From Naegleria gruberi (Eukaryota): 6,144 bases of DNA. Shown here piece after piece: positions 20 through 6,075 of the stretch. Location: assembly GCA_000004985.1 (NCBI GenBank), contig GG739155.1; one strand, given 5' to 3'. The notes under the pieces are model-generated. The model was given only the letters and a program-made list of their open reading frames with translations. It was not told the DNA's origin and did no database searches. The position numbers were made by a program, and so were the translations under genes. Every line of letters begins with the position of its first letter. Positions within the stretch are counted from its first letter, which is position 1.

Positions 20-970
20 TTACATGTCATAGATTTTAGCTCCACTAATTCTCATTCCTAGTTGGTGTTGATAGACGTACTTGGATTCTTCTTCCAAAAT
101 CTTTTGTGGTGAGGCATCTTCGCCATAGGTTCTTTGACCCATTTTAATGTCCATCACATTTGGATGATCCATATTAGCTGTAATATCCTCTAATACTATA
201 AAATCGATTGGTTTGAAAGTTTGTTGTGAAGGAAGTGTTGGTGTATTGGCAGGTGACACTGATGATGAAGACACTTCCGATGAAGATTGACTATTCAAAT
301 CACTATTAGTACTAACACCTGCTTGTTGTAAATATAAAGTATCCATCACTGAGCTGTTTGATGTAATATCAGGTATTTCTCCTTCTTCCAAAGGTACAAA
401 AGTTCTTTGTACTCCATAATATTTCGGAATGAAAGGAAGAAGATAGGCTGCCAATTTAACTTGATTCTCATAGAAATGAACCTCTGACCACGATCTCTTC
501 TTTCCTGGTTGTATTGCCTTGTATATTTTACAATCCCTGACCATCAATGAAAGTTCCTTTTTTTTCTTTCTCGTTCCATGTCCAGCCACTTGATTTATAC
601 AAGCCTCCAAACAATTTATATCAATAGGTGTAATCTTCAACTCTCCATAATCTGTTTTTTCGATATAGTACTGTTCTTGTTGATCAGCAGCTAATGATGA
701 GGATGACTCTCCACTGACGGCGGACATTTTTCGCTTTTTTTTTCTTCTTCGTTTTTTCAATTGTTTTGTATTGATGTTGTCTTGTTGTTGTTGTATTATT
801 GGTGATGATAATGATGATGGAAAAGAATCTTCATCTGGTGTTGAGCAGTATTCTTCTTCTCCTTCATCATCATTCGTTGGTGCATTAAAGATATTGTTAT
901 TATTAACGATCATTTGAAGATTGAATTGGTTGTTGTTATCGGAATACAGATGAGTTTTAAAAGTTTTCAT
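20..970 (-). CDS. Inositol polyphosphate kinase (IPK superfamily; IP6K/Kcs1-like or IPMK-like), N-terminal exon of ~316 codons. The ATG at 968-970 is the first in-frame ATG after an upstream TAG. The frame closes with TAA at 20-22, directly after the inositol-phosphate-binding motif, so the catalytic C-terminal half is missing from the window.
   Basis: The 316-codon ORF is far longer than chance allows in AT-rich DNA. The translation contains 'CINQVAGHGT', matching the QVGGH/QVAGH N-lobe motif of IPKs. It contains 'FIVLEDITANMDHPNVMDIKMGQRTYGEDASPQK', matching the IP6K/IPMK 'LLLEN...[21 protein letters not shown]' PxVxDxKxG inositol-binding signature. It ends with 'LGMRISGAKIYD', matching 'LGVRICGMQVYQ'. 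The N-terminal region carries poly-N, poly-Q and Ser-rich low complexity and a polybasic 'KKRRRKKKRK' stretch that looks like a nuclear localisation signal. The expected downstream SSLL and IDF(A/G)H catalytic motifs are absent. On the minus strand the stop overlaps a possible donor, GACAT|GTAAAA. Confidence 0.8.
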   Translation of the reverse strand: MKTFKTHLYSDNNNQFNLQMIVNNNNIFNAPTNDDEGEEEYCSTPDEDSFPSSLSSPIIQQQQDNINTKQLKKRRRKKKRKMSAVSGESSSSLAADQQEQYYIEKTDYGELKITPIDINCLEACINQVAGHGTRKKKKELSLMVRDCKIYKAIQPGKKRSWSEVHFYENQVKLAAYLLPFIPKYYGVQRTFVPLEEGEIPDITSNSSVMDTLYLQQAGVSTNSDLNSQSSSEVSSSSVSPANTPTLPSQQTFKPIDFIVLEDITANMDHPNVMDIKMGQRTYGEDASPQKILEEESKYVYQHQLGMRISGAKIYDM

Positions 971-1043: not shown

Positions 1044-1225
1044 ATTAGACTTCCGGAAAAAGTTTTGCTAAAAGTCGACTTTTTTAAGGTACTTTCACGC
1101 TAATTTGCAAAAAGGTGCCTAAAAGGTGCCTTTTTTACCTAAAAACTACTTGAAATACATCCAAAGTTTGTTCAAGAAAATCTTGAGCAACTTTCAAACT
1201 GTTTTCAAACAATTCCTCAAGAATG
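1044..1225 (+). repeat. Copy A of a dispersed, MITE-like repeat. The outer terminus ATTAGACTTCCGGAAAA is at 1044-1060. An internal palindrome-derived block AAAAGGTGCCT AAAAGGTGCC TTTTTT lies at 1110-1136. A GTTTG..AGCAA..TTTCAAA..CAAGAATG module follows.
   Basis: Aligning this segment by eye with the reverse complement of 5359..5469 gives a 17/17 identical terminus, both copies carrying TTCCGGAA. Both share the AAAAAGGYGCCTTTTT palindrome. Both share the downstream words GTTTGAGCAA, TTTCAAA/TTTGAAA and CAAGAA(A)TG in the same order. Copy A has extra internal sequence and a half-duplication of the palindrome. The inward end of the homology is approximate; similar words continue to about 1300. 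Confidence 0.6.
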
Positions 1226-1639
1226 ATTAATTACTTCTCAACCAAATTCTCAAAACGTTCAAGTATTTGCTGAAAAAACCCCAAGGGCCCTCAAACTTCT
1301 GAACTCACTTAACTATATCCTTTTCCAAAAAATCCACCAATTCCTTAAGAGATCCAAGGTTTTTGAATGTCACCATCTCGGGTCACTGTAGTTTTGATGG
1401 ATTTTTTTACATCAATCACGAAATCTTTCGAAAGCTCTGGTCTTTTGGGCTCCTCAACTTTTCTTGGCATGATGATTGTTTTCTTTTTGATAAGGTTCAG
1501 GTTTTTTCTCTTTCTGGGTGGAATGATGTTCAAATCAGATCTCTTCCTCTTCTGGATTTTTTCTTGCACAGCATGTGTCGCCATCAAGTATTTAATTTTT
1601 GTCTTTTCGCAAAGGGTGCTGTATTTTAAAAAAATGATG

Positions 1640-1730
1640 CAACAACACGCACACAACATCCACCTCCCACAAACTACATCCCACAACATGACTTCAACAC
1701 TAACAACAAACAAATAATCAAACATCAACA
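1640..1730 (+). promoter_or_regulatory. A/C-rich, almost G-free leader (CAACAACACGCACACAACATCCACCTCCCACAAACTACATCCCACAACATGACTTCAACACTAACAACAAACAAATAATCAAACATCAACA) directly upstream of ATG 1731. It is a probable 5' UTR or core-promoter region of the plus-strand gene.
   Basis: The tract of about 90 nt has only two or three G residues and very few T. The context is A at -3 (CAACAATGA). G-poor, A-rich leaders are typical of fungal and yeast 5' UTRs. The lack of stop codons on both strands here explains the spurious ORFs that overlap it. Confidence 0.35.
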
Positions 1731-2805
1731 ATGAGCATTCCACATATGTTTAAATGGAATTGGAAGAAGTCTTCTGATATTACCGCTATCAAGAAGAAGA
1801 AACCAACAAAACGTGGTAGGTTGTAGTTTTGTATAATAATTAATTAAATAATTAATTAATCGGATAAGTGAACATTGTTAACAACCAGAGAGATAATATA
1901 ATTCTAGATATGGATGACACTTTAAATACAATGCCAAACGAAGGAACTATTCAACATTGGCCACTTACTTCCAATCAAGCCTCCAATTTTTCATTACCAA
2001 CCATTAATTTTGTACCATTGGAAGAACCAACACAAAATGAAAGTATGTTTCATAATACTTAATATTTAAATATTTGAAAGCCTTTTCATATTTGGCTCTT
2101 CTTACACAACCCTCTCCTCCAAGTAAGTATTTCTTATTTAAATTTAAATTTATAATTTATAATGTAGAAATTAATTATCAATGTGGAAGAGTAATGGTTT
2201 CTAATAACAATATGTGGAATACTGATAATGATACAACATACTGTCTTTCTGATAATGAATCTAAAGCCTTAATGGAAAGAATTCAATTTTTTATCACACC
2301 AAATGGTGGTGAAGACACATTCAACATTAAATTGTCACCAGCCTCTCCTAAATATAACCACACAAGAGTCAAGGAAGCCAAGACATTAATAGAAAGAAGT
2401 GTGGTAGCAAGAATGAATCCTGATTCAGCAAGAAATGTAACTTGGAGACAGAATTTATGTTTTACACTTCCATTTGGTCCAATTTCAGATTTATTCTTCT
2501 CTCAGTTAACTCAATCCAAACCATCATCTGTTAAACTTACATCTAAGTATTACTATATGGAAGGCAAATCCTCTAAAGGTTTGAAACTTGATACAAAAGT
2601 GTATGTATGGGATGAAGATAATATGCCAAGTTTAAAATCTGAACATTGGTTTTTGAAAAAGTGGAATGGGAAGAATGATACGTTTCGAGCTAGATGTATT
2701 CAGTTTACTTTAACTTACAGGCCTCAACTCGACATTATTCGTGTTGAATTTAAATATACAACTCAAAAGTGGAACAATATTCTACAAGCTTGGCAAGATA
2801 TGTAA
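1731..2805 (+). CDS. Multi-exon gene encoding a hypothetical protein of no recognised family. The proposed exons are 1731..1815, 1908..2042, 2081..2122 and 2168..2802(2805). Intron 1 is 1816..1907 (GTAGGT...TTCTAG). Intron 2 is 2043..2080 (GTATGT...GAAAG). Intron 3 is 2123..2167 (GTAAGT...AATGTAG).
   Basis: A 243-codon ORF at 2074..2805 is significant in AT-rich DNA. The short ORF at 1731 (MSIPHMFKWNWKKSSDITAIKKKKPTKRG) ends at a canonical donor in phase 1. A TTCTAG acceptor restores the frame of the 1868..2062 ORF (..DMDDTLNTMPNEGTIQHWPLTSNQASNFSLPTINFVPLEEPTQNES). A GTATGT donor at 2043 and an AG at 2079-2080 then restore the frame of the 2074 ORF. The 45-nt candidate intron 3 is AT-rich low complexity (translated it reads YFLFKFKFIIYNV) flanked by GTAAGT and TAG. 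All exon junctions are phase-consistent. The splice sites are inferred, not verified. Either ATG 1910 or ATG 2074 could instead be the true start. Confidence 0.45.
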
Positions 2806-2862
2806 GATGTAAGTAATAAATCTTCATACCAAAACTCAAATATCCTTAATTGAAATTTCAAG

Positions 2863-2984
2863 TTGTCGAATCAAGGATCCAATTAAGATGTTGGCAGCCC
2901 GCCAAAAGTTAAACCCGCCAAAATTTGGGCATTTTGAAACTAAAAAAAATAGAGGATGGTACCACCAAGAAACCGTCCATCAGA
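2863..2984 (+). CDS. Possible additional exon (..ICRIKDPIKMLAARQKLNPPKFGHFETKKNRGWYHQETVHQ) that continues into the assembly gap. It would be joined to the previous exon through donor AT|GTAAGA at 2802 and acceptor TTTCAAG at 2856-2862, a 61-nt intron.
   Basis: Using the GTAAGA donor one nucleotide before the TAA at 2803-2805 and the AG at 2861-2862 keeps the reading frame open from the 2074 ORF into the open frame that holds ATG 2888 and runs into the Ns. The alternative is that the gene simply stops at 2805. Continuity across the gap cannot be tested. Confidence 0.25.
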
Positions 2985-3677
2985 NNNNNNNNNNNNNNNN
3001 NNNNNNNNNNNNNNNNNNNNNNNNNNNNNNNNNNNNNNNNNNNNNNNNNNNNNNNNNNNNNNNNNNNNNNNNNNNNNNNNNNNNNNNNNNNNNNNNNNNN
3101 NNNNNNNNNNNNNNNNNNNNNNNNNNNNNNNNNNNNNNNNNNNNNNNNNNNNNNNNNNNNNNNNNNNNNNNNNNNNNNNNNNNNNNNNNNNNNNNNNNNN
3201 NNNNNNNNNNNNNNNNNNNNNNNNNNNNNNNNNNNNNNNNNNNNNNNNNNNNNNNNNNNNNNNNNNNNNNNNNNNNNNNNNNNNNNNNNNNNNNNNNNNN
3301 NNNNNNNNNNNNNNNNNNNNNNNNNNNNNNNNNNNNNNNNNNNNNNNNNNNNNNNNNNNNNNNNNNNNNNNNNNNNNNNNNNNNNNNNNNNNNNNNNNNN
3401 NNNNNNNNNNNNNNNNNNNNNNNNNNNNNNNNNNNNNNNNNNNNNNNNNNNNNNNNNNNNNNNNNNNNNNNNNNNNNNNNNNNNNNNNNNNNNNNNNNNN
3501 NNNNNNNNNNNNNNNNNNNNNNNNNNNNNNNNNNNNNNNNNNNNNNNNNNNNNNNNNNNNNNNNNNNNNNNNNNNNNNNNNNNNNNNNNNNNNNNNNNNN
3601 NNNNNNNNNNNNNNNNNNNNNNNNNNNNNNNNNNNNNNNNNNNNNNNNNNNNNNNNNNNNNNNNNNNNNNNNNNNNN
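2985..3677. other. Assembly gap: a run of 693 N.
   Basis: The N run is contiguous. Its length is a multiple of 3, so ORF callers read straight through it. Every ORF-track entry made mostly of X is an artefact. Confidence 0.99.
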
Positions 3678-4977
3678 GCTTGTAAATCAACAGAATTCTC
3701 AACTAAGAGATAGACTGATGTATTGGAGAAATCAAGTTTCAAATTCAACATTTTATTCTCAACTAGATTGTGATACCATTATCCCAATAGAAGTAGTTGA
3801 TGGTATATACAGGTTGAAACATCTTCCATCAATTCCATCCTGTGCTGACGATTTTTTAAGACATTATTGGGTTGATCAGCAACTTTTCCATTTAATAATC
3901 AATAATTTGAATACCAAATACTATGCCACTAGTGGTGAAACCTTAACGACTTGCCCATTTTGTTTTTATTCATGGAAAATGAGAAAGTTTTATTTCAAAT
4001 TCCAAGATTTGAAGATTTGGCAGTGGAAAAGAACGGATGATCATTGGAAGAACTGTATTGGGTATAGTTTGAAAAATACTGGTATTTGTATTGCTCACGG
4101 ATTGAATAGAATCATGTATACAATGTTAGCATTAACTATAGGTTCGAACGAAGATGATATGAGATATTTTGCAGCATTATTCAGCACTGGATCTATTGAC
4201 GACAGATTCCTCAATAAGCAATTGATGAAACCATATATCAGATCAGATTTGTTACTGTATTATGATAACATTGTTTGGACAAATAATGGTATTAAGGTTA
4301 AAGAAACCAACCCACAAAATCAAGCACGGAATAATGGAGTTGGATCAACAACAGTTGAATTTAATCAACTACTATTCAAAATGACAGACAAAATCGTTGT
4401 CACATTTGATGTATGGTTCCCAATTATGCAGAAATATTTTGAGGAGAGGAATAGAATAAGTTCATTATCCAGAATATCTCAATGTATTGCTCAAATGCAA
4501 CAAGAACAACAAATTGCTGAAAGGCCGAAATTGGATGATAATATAAAGCGATTATGGAGGAATTTTCAAGATGTATGGAAGTTGTGCTATGATGATAGAG
4601 ACGTTTGGAACGCTTATAAGGCTAATGATTATATTCTTCCAAAATTAATTCTAGAGATTTTCCACAAATCAATGTACAAGAATGTAGGCGAGTCTGCTAA
4701 TGGTATTGCCGATTATGTTCATATCATTTGTTTCCATCTAATTGAATTATTTGAGAAATTCGGGCTTGCCCCATGGGAATATCATAATATTGATTCAGAA
4801 GCTTTACATTCGCATCAGAAGACTACTGAAAATGCAACAACTTTAAATGGTGGATGCTTTCATGATGAAACAGAGGATTTGCTTGTTATGGATTTGAAGA
4901 AATTCTTCTGTAGATTGGGTGATGACTCTTTCTTGTGTGATATCTATGATAATAATAAAGCTGTTTCTTATAGATAA
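3678..4977 (+). CDS. Hypothetical protein: 433 codons of open frame ending at TAA 4975-4977. Its 5' end is lost in the gap. It may be the 3' part of the 1731 gene. No family is recognised.
   Basis: An uninterrupted 433-codon frame in AT-rich DNA is extremely unlikely by chance. The amino-acid composition is diverse and not low-complexity, with Cys/His/Trp-containing stretches such as 'TCPFCFYSWKMRKFYF' and 'HWKNCIGYSLKNTGICIAHGLNRIMYTML'. The window contains no ATG for it; the ORF-track M at 2956 lies before the gap and is meaningless. Confidence 0.6.
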
Positions 4978-5282
4978 TCAAATGTCTTGAATATGTATGA
5001 TTAGAAATGTCACATGTTGGAAAAATTCCCACTTCGCAAGTAGAACAAATAAGGATGTTGTTGGATTTATTTGATTTTTTATTAAGGAAACGGCTGCGAA
5101 ACTCATTGAGTTCCCCCGTCGTATTTCTTGTGGTTTGACTCGCTGTGCTTGTTTCACACTTTTTTCTTGTTCCTGTTTCATGCTTAATTCAGAATATGGT
5201 GTTTCATTAAGATTTTCTTCCACTTCCTCAACATCTTCCGTTCCATCAACAATAGAATCAGCAAGATTAGGGAACCTTTCAA
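4978..5282 (-). CDS. Probable downstream (3') exon of the right-hand minus-strand gene. The open frame 4978..5331 has no ATG near its 5' end. A strong acceptor, a polypyrimidine tract followed by CTGAAG|TT, lies at 5283-5288 on the minus strand.
   Basis: The minus-strand frame is open from 5331 to TGA 4978. It reads ..ERFPNLADSIVDGTEDVEEVEENLNETPYSELSMKQEQEKSVKQAQRVKPQEIRRGNSMSFAAV.. The stretch upstream of 5282 on the minus strand is GCTTTCTTTTTCCTGATGTCAACCTTTACTTTACTGCATTTGCTGAAG, a long pyrimidine tract ending in AG. The motif 'RFPNLADSIV' resembles 'SFPNLDEFVV' at the N-terminus of the 5542..6075 ORF, which suggests one gene with an internal duplication. The last ~35 codons ('NPTTSLFVLLAKWEFFQHVTFLIIHIQDI') look non-coding, so the true 3' end, or a further intron, is uncertain. 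Confidence 0.3.
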
Positions 5283-5358
5283 CTTCAGCAAATGCAGTAA
5301 AGTAAAGGTTGACATCAGGAAAAAGAAAGCTTCAATAAATGTGCAGGAAAGGTTTAAA

Positions 5359-5469
5359 CATTTCTTGAATTATGCTCAAACAAATTTCAAAAATTGCTCA
5401 AACATTTTTCAAACCACTTTTTTAAAAAGGCGCCTTTTTGTTTCTTTTTGACTTTTCCGGAAGTCTAAT
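5359..5469 (-). repeat. Copy B of the same repeat, in inverted orientation relative to copy A. The outer terminus TTTTCCGGAAGTCTAAT is at 5453-5469. A perfect 16-bp palindrome AAAAAGGCGCCTTTTT is at 5424-5439.
   Basis: The reverse complement reads ATTAGACTTCCGGAAAAGTC...AAAAAGGCGCCTTTTT...GTTTGAGCAATTTTTGAAATTTGTTTGAGCATAATTCAAGAAATG. This is colinear with copy A. The copy probably lies inside an intron of the right-hand minus-strand gene. Confidence 0.6.
5424..5439. repeat. Perfect 16-bp palindrome AAAAAGGCGCCTTTTT with a GGCGCC core, inside repeat copy B. Copy A carries the variant AAAAAGGTGCCT AAAAGGTGCC TTTTTT (1109-1136) with the half-site duplicated.
   Basis: Read directly from the sequence. 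The reverse complement of AAAAAGGC is GCCTTTTT. Confidence 0.9.
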
Positions 5470-5541: not shown

Positions 5542-6075
5542 TTAGATATGAGACTTGCCATCAAGAATGATAAAAGAATGATCATTGTAAAAATTGAAAA
5601 TGTACCAATACCAGTAACAACAACGGAAGAAACCAAATGTGAAATTATTGATAACTGCACCCAAGAAGTATCTACAGAACATATCAGTAGTATCAGCAGT
5701 CCATTCGAATCTCATTTCAACTGGTGAAGTAATTGGTTGACCAATGATTGGATATTGTGAGCTATATTGAACATTGTAATTGATTTGAGTTTTCTTATTT
5801 CTTTCTCTCAATTGAGAAGCAACTTGTGGTGGAATAACAACGAATTGACCTCTTCCATATCTAACTTGTTCCAAAAACTTTGGATTATAATATTGGTGGA
5901 CGAAAGGATATAAGAAACCAAATGTCAAAATAGCACAAGTCTTCATCAAGGTATATAACAATTCTCTTTGCCATCCAAGATGAACACCATAATAACGAAT
6001 CACTCCACGACAATCATTTTCAGGTTGCCAAACCACAAACTCATCCAAATTTGGAAAACTTCCACTTGCTTCCAT
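5542..6075 (-). CDS. Hypothetical small membrane protein, 177-codon ORF. ATG 6073-6075 is the first in-frame ATG after an upstream TGA at 6130-6132. It has one strongly hydrophobic segment, 'LLYTLMKTCAILTFGFLYPFV'. The C-terminal ~45 codons, rich in F, Y, W and C, look like intron or UTR read-through.
   Basis: The ORF length is significant for AT-rich DNA. The N-terminal 130 residues have balanced composition: MEASGSFPNLDEFVVWQPENDCRGVIRYYGVHLGWQRELLYTLMKTCAILTFGFLYPFVHQYYNPKFLEQVRYGRGQFVVIPPQVASQLRERNKK... The tail 'MFCRYFLGAVINNFTFGFFRCCYWYWYIFNFYNDHSF' looks like translated AT-rich non-coding sequence. A phase-1 donor candidate T|GTAGAT at 5674-5675 would join to the exon at 5282. I could not match the protein to a named family. 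Confidence 0.5.
   Translation of the reverse strand: MEASGSFPNLDEFVVWQPENDCRGVIRYYGVHLGWQRELLYTLMKTCAILTFGFLYPFVHQYYNPKFLEQVRYGRGQFVVIPPQVASQLRERNKKTQINYNVQYSSQYPIIGQPITSPVEMRFEWTADTTDMFCRYFLGAVINNFTFGFFRCCYWYWYIFNFYNDHSFIILDGKSHI

Follow-up and report, generated by a model that had tools for sequence, protein, structure and literature searches.

A candidate RAG1/Transib-like transposon and a probable nested insertion between diverged inverted repeats in Naegleria gruberi

What do the two inverted repeats on a small scaffold of the amoeba Naegleria gruberi enclose, and do they belong to the segment that lies between them? The stretch of DNA analysed here (the window) is the entire 6,144-bp scaffold (contig GG739155.1 of assembly GCA_000004985.1), an AT-rich sequence of ~33% GC, on which two related repeats face each other at the edges of a segment of 4.4 kb containing genes and an assembly gap. 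The first-pass annotation, made from the sequence alone, had left two readings: two independent insertions of a MITE-like family (MITE, miniature inverted-repeat transposable element), or the terminal inverted repeats (TIRs) of one composite element with captured host genes. The reading favoured here, with a probability of about 0.7, is a nested insertion, in which a transposon of CMCT type with its own termini lies inside a single repeat-bounded unit of 841 bp.

According to this scheme, the 841-bp unit would originally have occupied the space that separates gene NAEGRDRAFT_76790 (3' end) from an inositol polyphosphate kinase (IPK) gene (5' end). A cut-and-paste transposon of the CMCT clade would then have inserted into its centre, duplicating the 4-bp target CTTG and driving the two arms of the unit 4.4 kb apart. 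The newcomer would have brought along two co-oriented open reading frames (ORFs), namely gene B, the putative DDE transposase, and gene A, a putative accessory or N-terminal module.

The inner element, its copies and its termini

Features of the inner element are listed below; L001 and L002 are metagenome contigs introduced in the following paragraphs.

1567-5147, plus strand: inner, presumably autonomous DNA transposon of CMCT / RAG1-Transib type, 3,581 bp as assembled, with bounds taken from homology to L001 and L002
1567-1576, plus strand: inner left terminus CACAGCATGT
1563-1566 and 5148-5151: candidate target-site duplication CTTG, identical copies at the homology-fixed boundaries
1731-2805, plus strand: gene A (NAEGRDRAFT_76788), exons 1731-1815, 1908-2042 and 2168-2805, 285 amino acids (aa)
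2806-2955, plus strand: between gene A and gene B, a spacer or perhaps an intron (donor GTAAGA at 2804, AG acceptors at ~2951-2953)
2956-4977, plus strand: gene B, candidate DDE transposase, interrupted by the gap at 2985-3677
2985-3677: assembly gap of 693 N, inside gene B
3952-3963, 4087-4098, 4720-4737 and 4792-4800: gene B motifs C(2)C, CIAH, H(4)H and DSE, respectively
5066-5147, plus strand: conserved 3' subterminal block with the inner right terminus ...ACTCGCTGTG (5138-5147), aligning with L001 2556-2642

Proteins of genes A and B were found on at least six N. gruberi scaffolds (6144, 8124, 8535, 222118, 348446 and 499907 bp, according to the protein cluster listing), the 8,124-bp scaffold being the one that carries EFC35653. 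P0020, a JGI model of 900 aa that joins gene A to gene B, was 99.5% identical to the window over the aligned stretches; it supplied the sequence hidden by the gap and was colinear with the window on both gap sides, in the same ORF and the same orientation. Near-identical copies at several loci, as seen in these protein records, are the mark of a recently active family. Because near-identical ORFs recur on six scaffolds, the interior is a young multicopy transposon family and does not consist of captured host genes.

Outside N. gruberi, the ORF that follows the gap (3679-4974) displayed a single match in a search of 5.8 billion proteins, P0001 (754 aa, 53% identical). Its source was L001, a 2.7-kb ENA metagenome contig on which this gene is preceded by the end of a gene-A-like ORF and followed by a conserved non-coding block. 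Three proteins were retrieved with the spliced gene A query: P0016, which is the annotation of the window itself, a nearly identical paralogue from the 348-kb scaffold of N. gruberi, and P0018, a metagenome homologue encoded on contig L002. As L002 and L001 overlap over 1,250 bp at 97% identity, they represent together an almost full copy of the element from a related organism. The order gene A, gene B recurred in L001/L002 and in L033 (GCA_041937235.1, JBEGDK010000039.1; a eukaryote of 28% GC), where a degenerate copy with the same order occupied 9387-12225 and gene B was split into at least two ORFs.

Element boundaries were set by BLASTN and local alignments against L001 and L002. Similarity to L002 begins at 1559/1567 and similarity to L001 stops exactly at 5147, on the terminal GCTGTG; the boundary letters in the window, with a slash at the break point, are ...TTTTTTCTTG / CACAGCATGTGTCG... 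on the left and ...GACTCGCTGTG / CTTGTTTCAC... on the right. Non-coding sequence just inside the break points could be aligned across species while sequence just outside was at shuffle level, no similarity being detected there across species, nor when one metagenome flank was compared with the other in inverted orientation. In the metagenome element, each end is made of CACAGCATGT (L002 126-135 and, as reverse complement, L001 2633-2642), which gives it a perfect 10-bp TIR. In the window the element ends in 5'-CACAGC...GCTGTG-3', its right end reading CACAGCGAGT in reverse complement (terminus ...CGCTGTG), and it thereby displays the CA..TG extremities of the CMCT clade. The CTTG copies abutting both termini would be the target-site duplication.

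TTTTTTCTTG was present at 1557-1566 and again at 5160-5169, hence on both sides of the insertion point, indicating that the target was part of a direct repeat, short and rich in pyrimidines. At the L002 copy, the left flank was similar to the target in the window (TATTTTCCT), and these pyrimidine-rich flanks hint at a target preference of the inner element. The copies in L033 and L034/L035 were degenerate, and termini and target-site duplications could not be resolved there.

The gap of 693 N agrees with the ~700 bp that the first-pass annotation regarded as hidden. Comparison with P0001 and P0020 suggested that it hides ~330 codons and, going by the lengths of these two proteins, it is probably ~300 bp too short. 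Since the gap looks undersized, the true length of the inner element is probably ~3.9 kb.

No Pfam domain was detected in gene A, and its most probable role is that of an accessory or N-terminal module of the transposase. JGI model P0016 and the model made here differ in the middle exons. JGI model P0020 splices gene A to gene B from the donor at 2804. The motif CCGCCAAAA was repeated in the spacer between both genes (2898-2926) and conserved at L001 113-125 and L002 1469-1481; a further one was encountered just outside the right end of L001 (2721-2730). JGI models of the near-identical copies (P0016, P0017, P0019, P0020, P0025 and P0026) varied from 101 to 900 aa, in their exons and in being fused or split. 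Within the 90% cluster to which the gene B models of 900 aa and 332 aa belong, the representative was a 182-aa fragment of gene A (P0017), which is why a first protein search gave no self-match.

A distinct arrangement was seen in Naegleria lovaniensis (genome PYSW; PMC6125883). In protein P0010 (1,159 aa; L032 10001-13765, PYSW02000061.1), two Zn2Cys6 clusters of fungal type are combined with a gene-A-like stretch and a gene-B-like region. The gene-A-like stretch, which lies N-terminal to the clusters and to the gene-B-like region, was detected by tblastn on DNA (E 1e-6) and by BLASTP on the annotated protein (E 0.004, over 36 aa only). No terminal inverted repeats were found around P0010 in N. 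lovaniensis, and this protein may be a domesticated transposase or a transcription factor.

Gene B and its placement among known systems

Relatives of gene B numbered 13, mostly fragments, in a HMMER search of 1.84 billion representative proteins; NAEGRDRAFT_54856 corresponds to the C-terminal 332 aa of gene B itself. Residues are given here in the numbering of P0001. Family alignments displayed two conserved aspartates, D208 in [KR][YH]..D.R and D285 in PD[LM], together with C415/C418 (CxxC), a C.AH motif, H670/H675 (H-x4-H) and E696, which lies 21 residues past H675. The CxxC motif occurred as CPFC, CGCC or CPKC while H-x4-H was kept. Gene B proteins therefore carry the succession D, D, C(2)C, H(4)H, E described as the signature of the CMCT clade, whose members mostly possess 5'-CA..TG-3' termini and produce target-site duplications of 2-5 bp (PMC12730594). 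In RAG1 chains from PDB, residues 934-966 span H937, H942 and E962; hhalign set YVHIVCFHLTELFDKFG of the gene B family on the segment H937-E962, with H937 and H942 in register.

In the predicted core, the secondary-structure elements follow one another as in RNase H (beta1-beta2-beta3-alpha1-beta4-alpha); D208 comes after beta1 and D285 after beta4, an arrangement that would place a DDE triad on an RNase H-like core as in the CMCT clade. Best matches of this predicted fold were RAG1, HzTransib (6pqn_A) and BbRAG1L. The matches of two separate low-confidence models fell in one small structural family, without generic RNase H proteins among them. From conserved motifs and predicted structure, gene B is taken here as a RAG1/Transib-like (CMCT) DDE transposase with putative catalytic and zinc-binding residues. 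The initial statement that no transposase-like ORF was recognisable between the repeats thus no longer holds, ORF 2956-4977 being a candidate DDE transposase. No gene B locus turned up in protein-guided searches of prokaryotic genomes and viral contigs; the host range seen comprised Naegleria, metagenome organisms and one AT-rich eukaryote assembly.

The inner element is filed here at clade level as a member of CMCT, a clade taken to include EnSpm/CACTA, Mirage, Chapaev, Transib, Plavaka, ESTA as well as Lanisha, with RAG1 derived from the group. It resembles the clade and RAG1 in the predicted core fold of gene B, in the D, D, C(2)C, H(4)H, E motifs and in its CA..TG termini. It differs in the presence of an upstream gene A module, in a sequence without similarity detectable by Pfam or PDB hidden Markov model searches, and in the spacing between the second D and C(2)C (~130 aa in gene B versus 19 aa in RAG1).

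Likeness to Transib was apparent in the structural matches to gene B, among the best of which was the HzTransib transposase (6pqn_A). The inner terminus CACAGCA has CACAG in common with the heptamer of the recombination signal sequence (RSS), CACAGTG. Transibs, however, generate 5-bp target-site duplications and usually have one or a few autonomous copies (PMC4411706), whereas the flanks of the inner element (TCTTG and CTTGT) are in register over 4 bp and not over 5 bp, its near-identical copies number at least six and the Pfam RAG1 model did not match. Both the duplication length and the sequence comparisons speak against strict Transib membership.

Chapaev elements display a 4-bp target-site duplication in the Repbase classification, and going by this length the CTTG duplication would be compatible with them. 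Chapaev, which has been grouped with Transib/CMC and carries N-terminal Chapa zinc-finger and RING domains (PMC4411706), was compared by description only; these domains were not seen in the inner element, gene A being without Pfam match. TransibSU/ProtoRAG (RAG1L + RAG2L) also combines a RAG1-like transposase with a second gene within the same TIRs. TransibSU genes are arranged head-to-head (PMC4411706) whereas gene A lies upstream in the same orientation and is apparently fused to the transposase in N. lovaniensis, and nothing points to gene A being kelch/RAG2-like.

A more specific proposal, held tentatively and at somewhat less than even odds, is that the inner element represents an undescribed deep-branching RAG1/Transib-like (CMCT) lineage in Heterolobosea (Discoba). 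It would have been active in N. gruberi until recently, would escape both Pfam and sequence searches of solved structures, and would be characterised by a two-ORF layout (gene A plus transposase); the N. lovaniensis fusion with two Zn2Cys6 clusters and no detectable terminal repeats would be a perhaps domesticated representative.

The outer repeats and the unit they bound

Features of the outer pair and of the unit between its ends are as follows.

1044-1060, plus strand: outer left terminus ATTAGACTTCCGGAAAA, a perfect 17-bp inverted repeat with 5453-5469
5453-5469, minus strand: outer right terminus, reverse complement of ATTAGACTTCCGGAAAA, matching the left one at 17 of 17 positions
1051-1058 and 5455-5462: palindrome TTCCGGAA, inside both copies of the 17-mer
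1044-1302, plus strand: outer left arm, with a tandem AAAAGGTGCCT duplication and a near-palindrome at 1120-1135
5258-5469, minus strand: outer right arm, with the perfect palindrome AAAAAGGCGCCTTTTT at 5424-5439
5152-5331, minus strand: right (5') half of the ORF of the outer unit, first ATG at 5181
1345-1566, minus strand: left (3') half of the same ORF, stop at 1345-1347, broken at 1566/1567

The identical outward ends and their internal palindrome, both pointed out in the first-pass annotation, were confirmed here. Allowing up to three mismatches, ATTAGACTTCCGGAAAA matched the window at these two places only, against 0.04 matches expected from shuffles. A second palindrome, AAAAAGGYGCCTTTTT, had been attributed to both copies; it was perfect at 5424-5439 and carried one mismatch at 1120-1135. 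The arms were related yet diverged, as first described, and extended beyond the initial limits of 1225 and 5359, reaching inward to ~1302 on the left and ~5258 on the right (~200 bp of homology). MAFFT placed them in a wrong register and local alignment was used: 1108-1302 against the reverse complement of 5258-5450 gave a score of 83, compared with 38 +/- 6 (maximum 58) for an empirical null of other window segments on both strands and 35 +/- 6 for mononucleotide shuffles. Identity was 76% over ungapped columns, and 42 of the 215 columns contained gaps, reflecting many indels. That the 17-bp ends are perfect while the arms have otherwise diverged suggests that the termini were under selection, as those of transposons are.

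Only one 17-mer terminus was encountered per arm, without an inner counterpart at up to three mismatches. This single terminus indicates that the arms are two halves of one unit instead of two complete MITEs; the same observation speaks against a composite transposon in the sense of two complete flanking elements. As initially noted, there was no clean target-site duplication around the outer pair: the flanks ...TTATTAAT / TTAGAATTT allowed only self-complementary readings, TA or AT.

In-silico deletion of 1567-5151 yielded a unit of 841 bp (1044-1566 joined to 5152-5469) bounded by the 17-mers, with arms of ~260 bp and ~212 bp, module-like and diverged; the reconstructed empty site reads ...GGATTTTTTCTTGTTTCACAC... 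at the joint. A minus-strand frame of 133 open codons crosses this joint (5331 to 5152, then 1566 to 1348). Its product is rich in lysine and glutamate and of low complexity, displayed no meaningful Pfam match and was absent as an exact protein from a 15-billion-protein collection; none of ten candidate small ORFs of the unit was present in the exact-protein look-up. The outer unit displayed no similarity to the inner element or to the flanks of L001 and L002. Its 17-mer had no match in viral contigs and 29 in JGI metagenome contigs; these were judged to be chance matches, most of them being in unrelated contigs and none being accompanied by arm similarity or by the GGYGCC palindrome.

Chances are about even that the outer unit is itself a transposon, in which case it would likely be a non-autonomous TIR DNA element. 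Like MITEs and other non-autonomous TIR elements with a nested insertion, it is short (841 bp), displays perfect TIRs and structured subterminal arms and encodes no transposase; unlike them, it has no target-site duplication, no second copy was seen and it contains a 133-codon open frame. Nesting of transposons in transposons is common. Once the unit is removed, ~145 bp of intergenic DNA would be left between both flanking genes, a plausible spacing in the compact genome of N. gruberi.

Of the flanking genes, ORF 5545-6075 on the minus strand (stop at 5542-5544) was 100% identical to NAEGRDRAFT_76790 (177 aa). It is a single ORF that ends before the right arm, so the arm lies downstream of the gene and outside any annotated intron, contrary to the initial placement of one copy in an intron. 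NAEGRDRAFT_76790 is an orphan, having matched only itself among 5.8 billion proteins; a match to DUF898 was weak and below threshold. On the other side, 23-970 (minus strand) encodes the start of an IPK domain (Pfam IPK, E 1e-16) and represents the 5' exon of the IPK gene, with a long N/Q/S-rich N-terminus of low complexity. This ORF stops at 20-22 and yet covers only positions 1-61 of the 190 in the profile; the probable explanation is an intron whose start lies upstream of the stop, the remainder of the gene being beyond the scaffold end. Rfam and tRNA scans of the window returned a single sub-threshold miRNA-like match, judged to be due to chance (mir-598 at 807-874, minus strand, in the IPK coding region; 21 bits versus a gathering score of 69, E 0.78).

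Weighing of the readings and implications

Several observations weigh against a nested insertion of a RAG1-like element. Regarding the termini, only a single copy displayed the CTTG/CTTG duplication, and the inner inverted repeat, with six perfect bases and 8 of 12 positions matching, is short. When the same regions were scanned freely, seven pairs arose by chance in which a 4-bp direct flank accompanied terminal agreement at 8 or more of 12 positions, and the combined signal of terminus and flanking repeat counts only because the boundaries had been fixed beforehand by homology. These break points in turn rest on copies from other species, whose flanking DNA would have diverged anyway. As for the protein, Pfam searches with 10 gene B members at E values up to 10 detected no family (except Zn_clus in P0010), and profile searches against PDB sequences gave no matches; the hhalign alignment with the RAG1 segment reached only E 0.09. 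The AlphaFold2 model of P0001, built from 15 sequences, was of low confidence (mean predicted local distance difference test, pLDDT, of 52.6) and its full-length version found nothing in PDB with Foldseek; that of the isolated core (P0001 residues 125-330, six sequences) was likewise of low confidence (pLDDT 53.8, predicted template modelling score 0.48). For the outer unit, no second copy was found in the viral, metagenome and protein collections scanned. Both halves of the rejoined ORF also stay open into the insert, and the restored frame, with a chance of ~1 in 3, is weak evidence for that reason.

Four other explanations were considered. In one of them the outer unit would never have been mobile: a small host gene (minus-strand ORF of 83-133 codons) would have had its flanks inversely duplicated and would then have received the transposon. 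Such a gene would be in keeping with the 133-codon frame that the arms enclose and that is oriented like both neighbouring genes, as well as with the lack of a target-site duplication and of any other copy. Set against this are the properties of that ORF (no Pfam match, K/E-rich low complexity, absence of the exact protein from the 15-billion collection) and the perfect 17-bp ends on diverged arms, suggestive of selection on termini; this explanation is considered unlikely. It is quite unlikely, too, that 1044-5469 is one large transposon of which the 17-bp repeats are the true ends and the CACAGC motifs internal features (subterminal binding sites or promoter/terminator). The outer repeat is perfect and far longer than its inner counterpart, only 110-125 bp of the metagenome contigs lie beyond CACAGC where the arms are 110-264 bp away, and pairs of chance termini with flanking repeats are common in the window, all of which would be in keeping with a single element. 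Its ends, however, would be ATTAGAC...GTCTAAT and not CA..TG, without a flanking direct repeat, whereas cross-species similarity breaks at CACAGC on both sides with conserved non-coding DNA just inside, the CTTG direct repeat is located exactly at the CACAGC boundaries and the 10-bp TIR of the metagenome element is perfect.

Two independent MITE-like insertions facing each other, as proposed in the first-pass annotation, are very improbable. Old copies of a family would indeed be diverged to the extent observed (76% identity, many indels), but neither arm possesses a second terminus, the 17-mer matching only twice at up to three mismatches; moreover, outward ends identical at 17 of 17 positions contrast with differing interiors, and no annotated intron contains the right arm. 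The least credible explanation, a bare outside chance, is an assembly artefact, either repeat collapse or a mis-join across the gap. The scaffold is small (6,144 bp in all), its 693-N gap lies inside a repeated element and this gap appears ~300 bp too short in comparison with P0001 and P0020. The arms, on the other hand, are in contiguous sequence at 1.9 kb and 1.6 kb from the gap, both sides of which belong to the same ORF in the same orientation, colinear with P0020.

Under the nested insertion favoured here, the first-pass idea of a single composite element was probably right in pairing the arms. It erred as to the content, which corresponds not to captured host genes but to a multicopy transposon with its own CA...TG termini, 4-bp flanking repeat and candidate transposase. 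The inverted pair itself would then be ordinary, a repeat-bounded unit split by a nested transposon and not a gene-capturing composite. The by-product of its analysis is a young multicopy family that combines the RAG1/Transib motif set and predicted fold with no detectable sequence similarity to curated families. If confirmed, this family would extend RAG1-like (CMCT) transposases to heterolobosean amoebae and would offer biochemists an element that is apparently intact and recently active, while the 'predicted proteins' NAEGRDRAFT_76788, _54856, _53739, _71313, _72056 and _76646 would turn out to be transposon genes. The Zn2Cys6 fusion of N. lovaniensis (P0010) would add a candidate case of transposase domestication.

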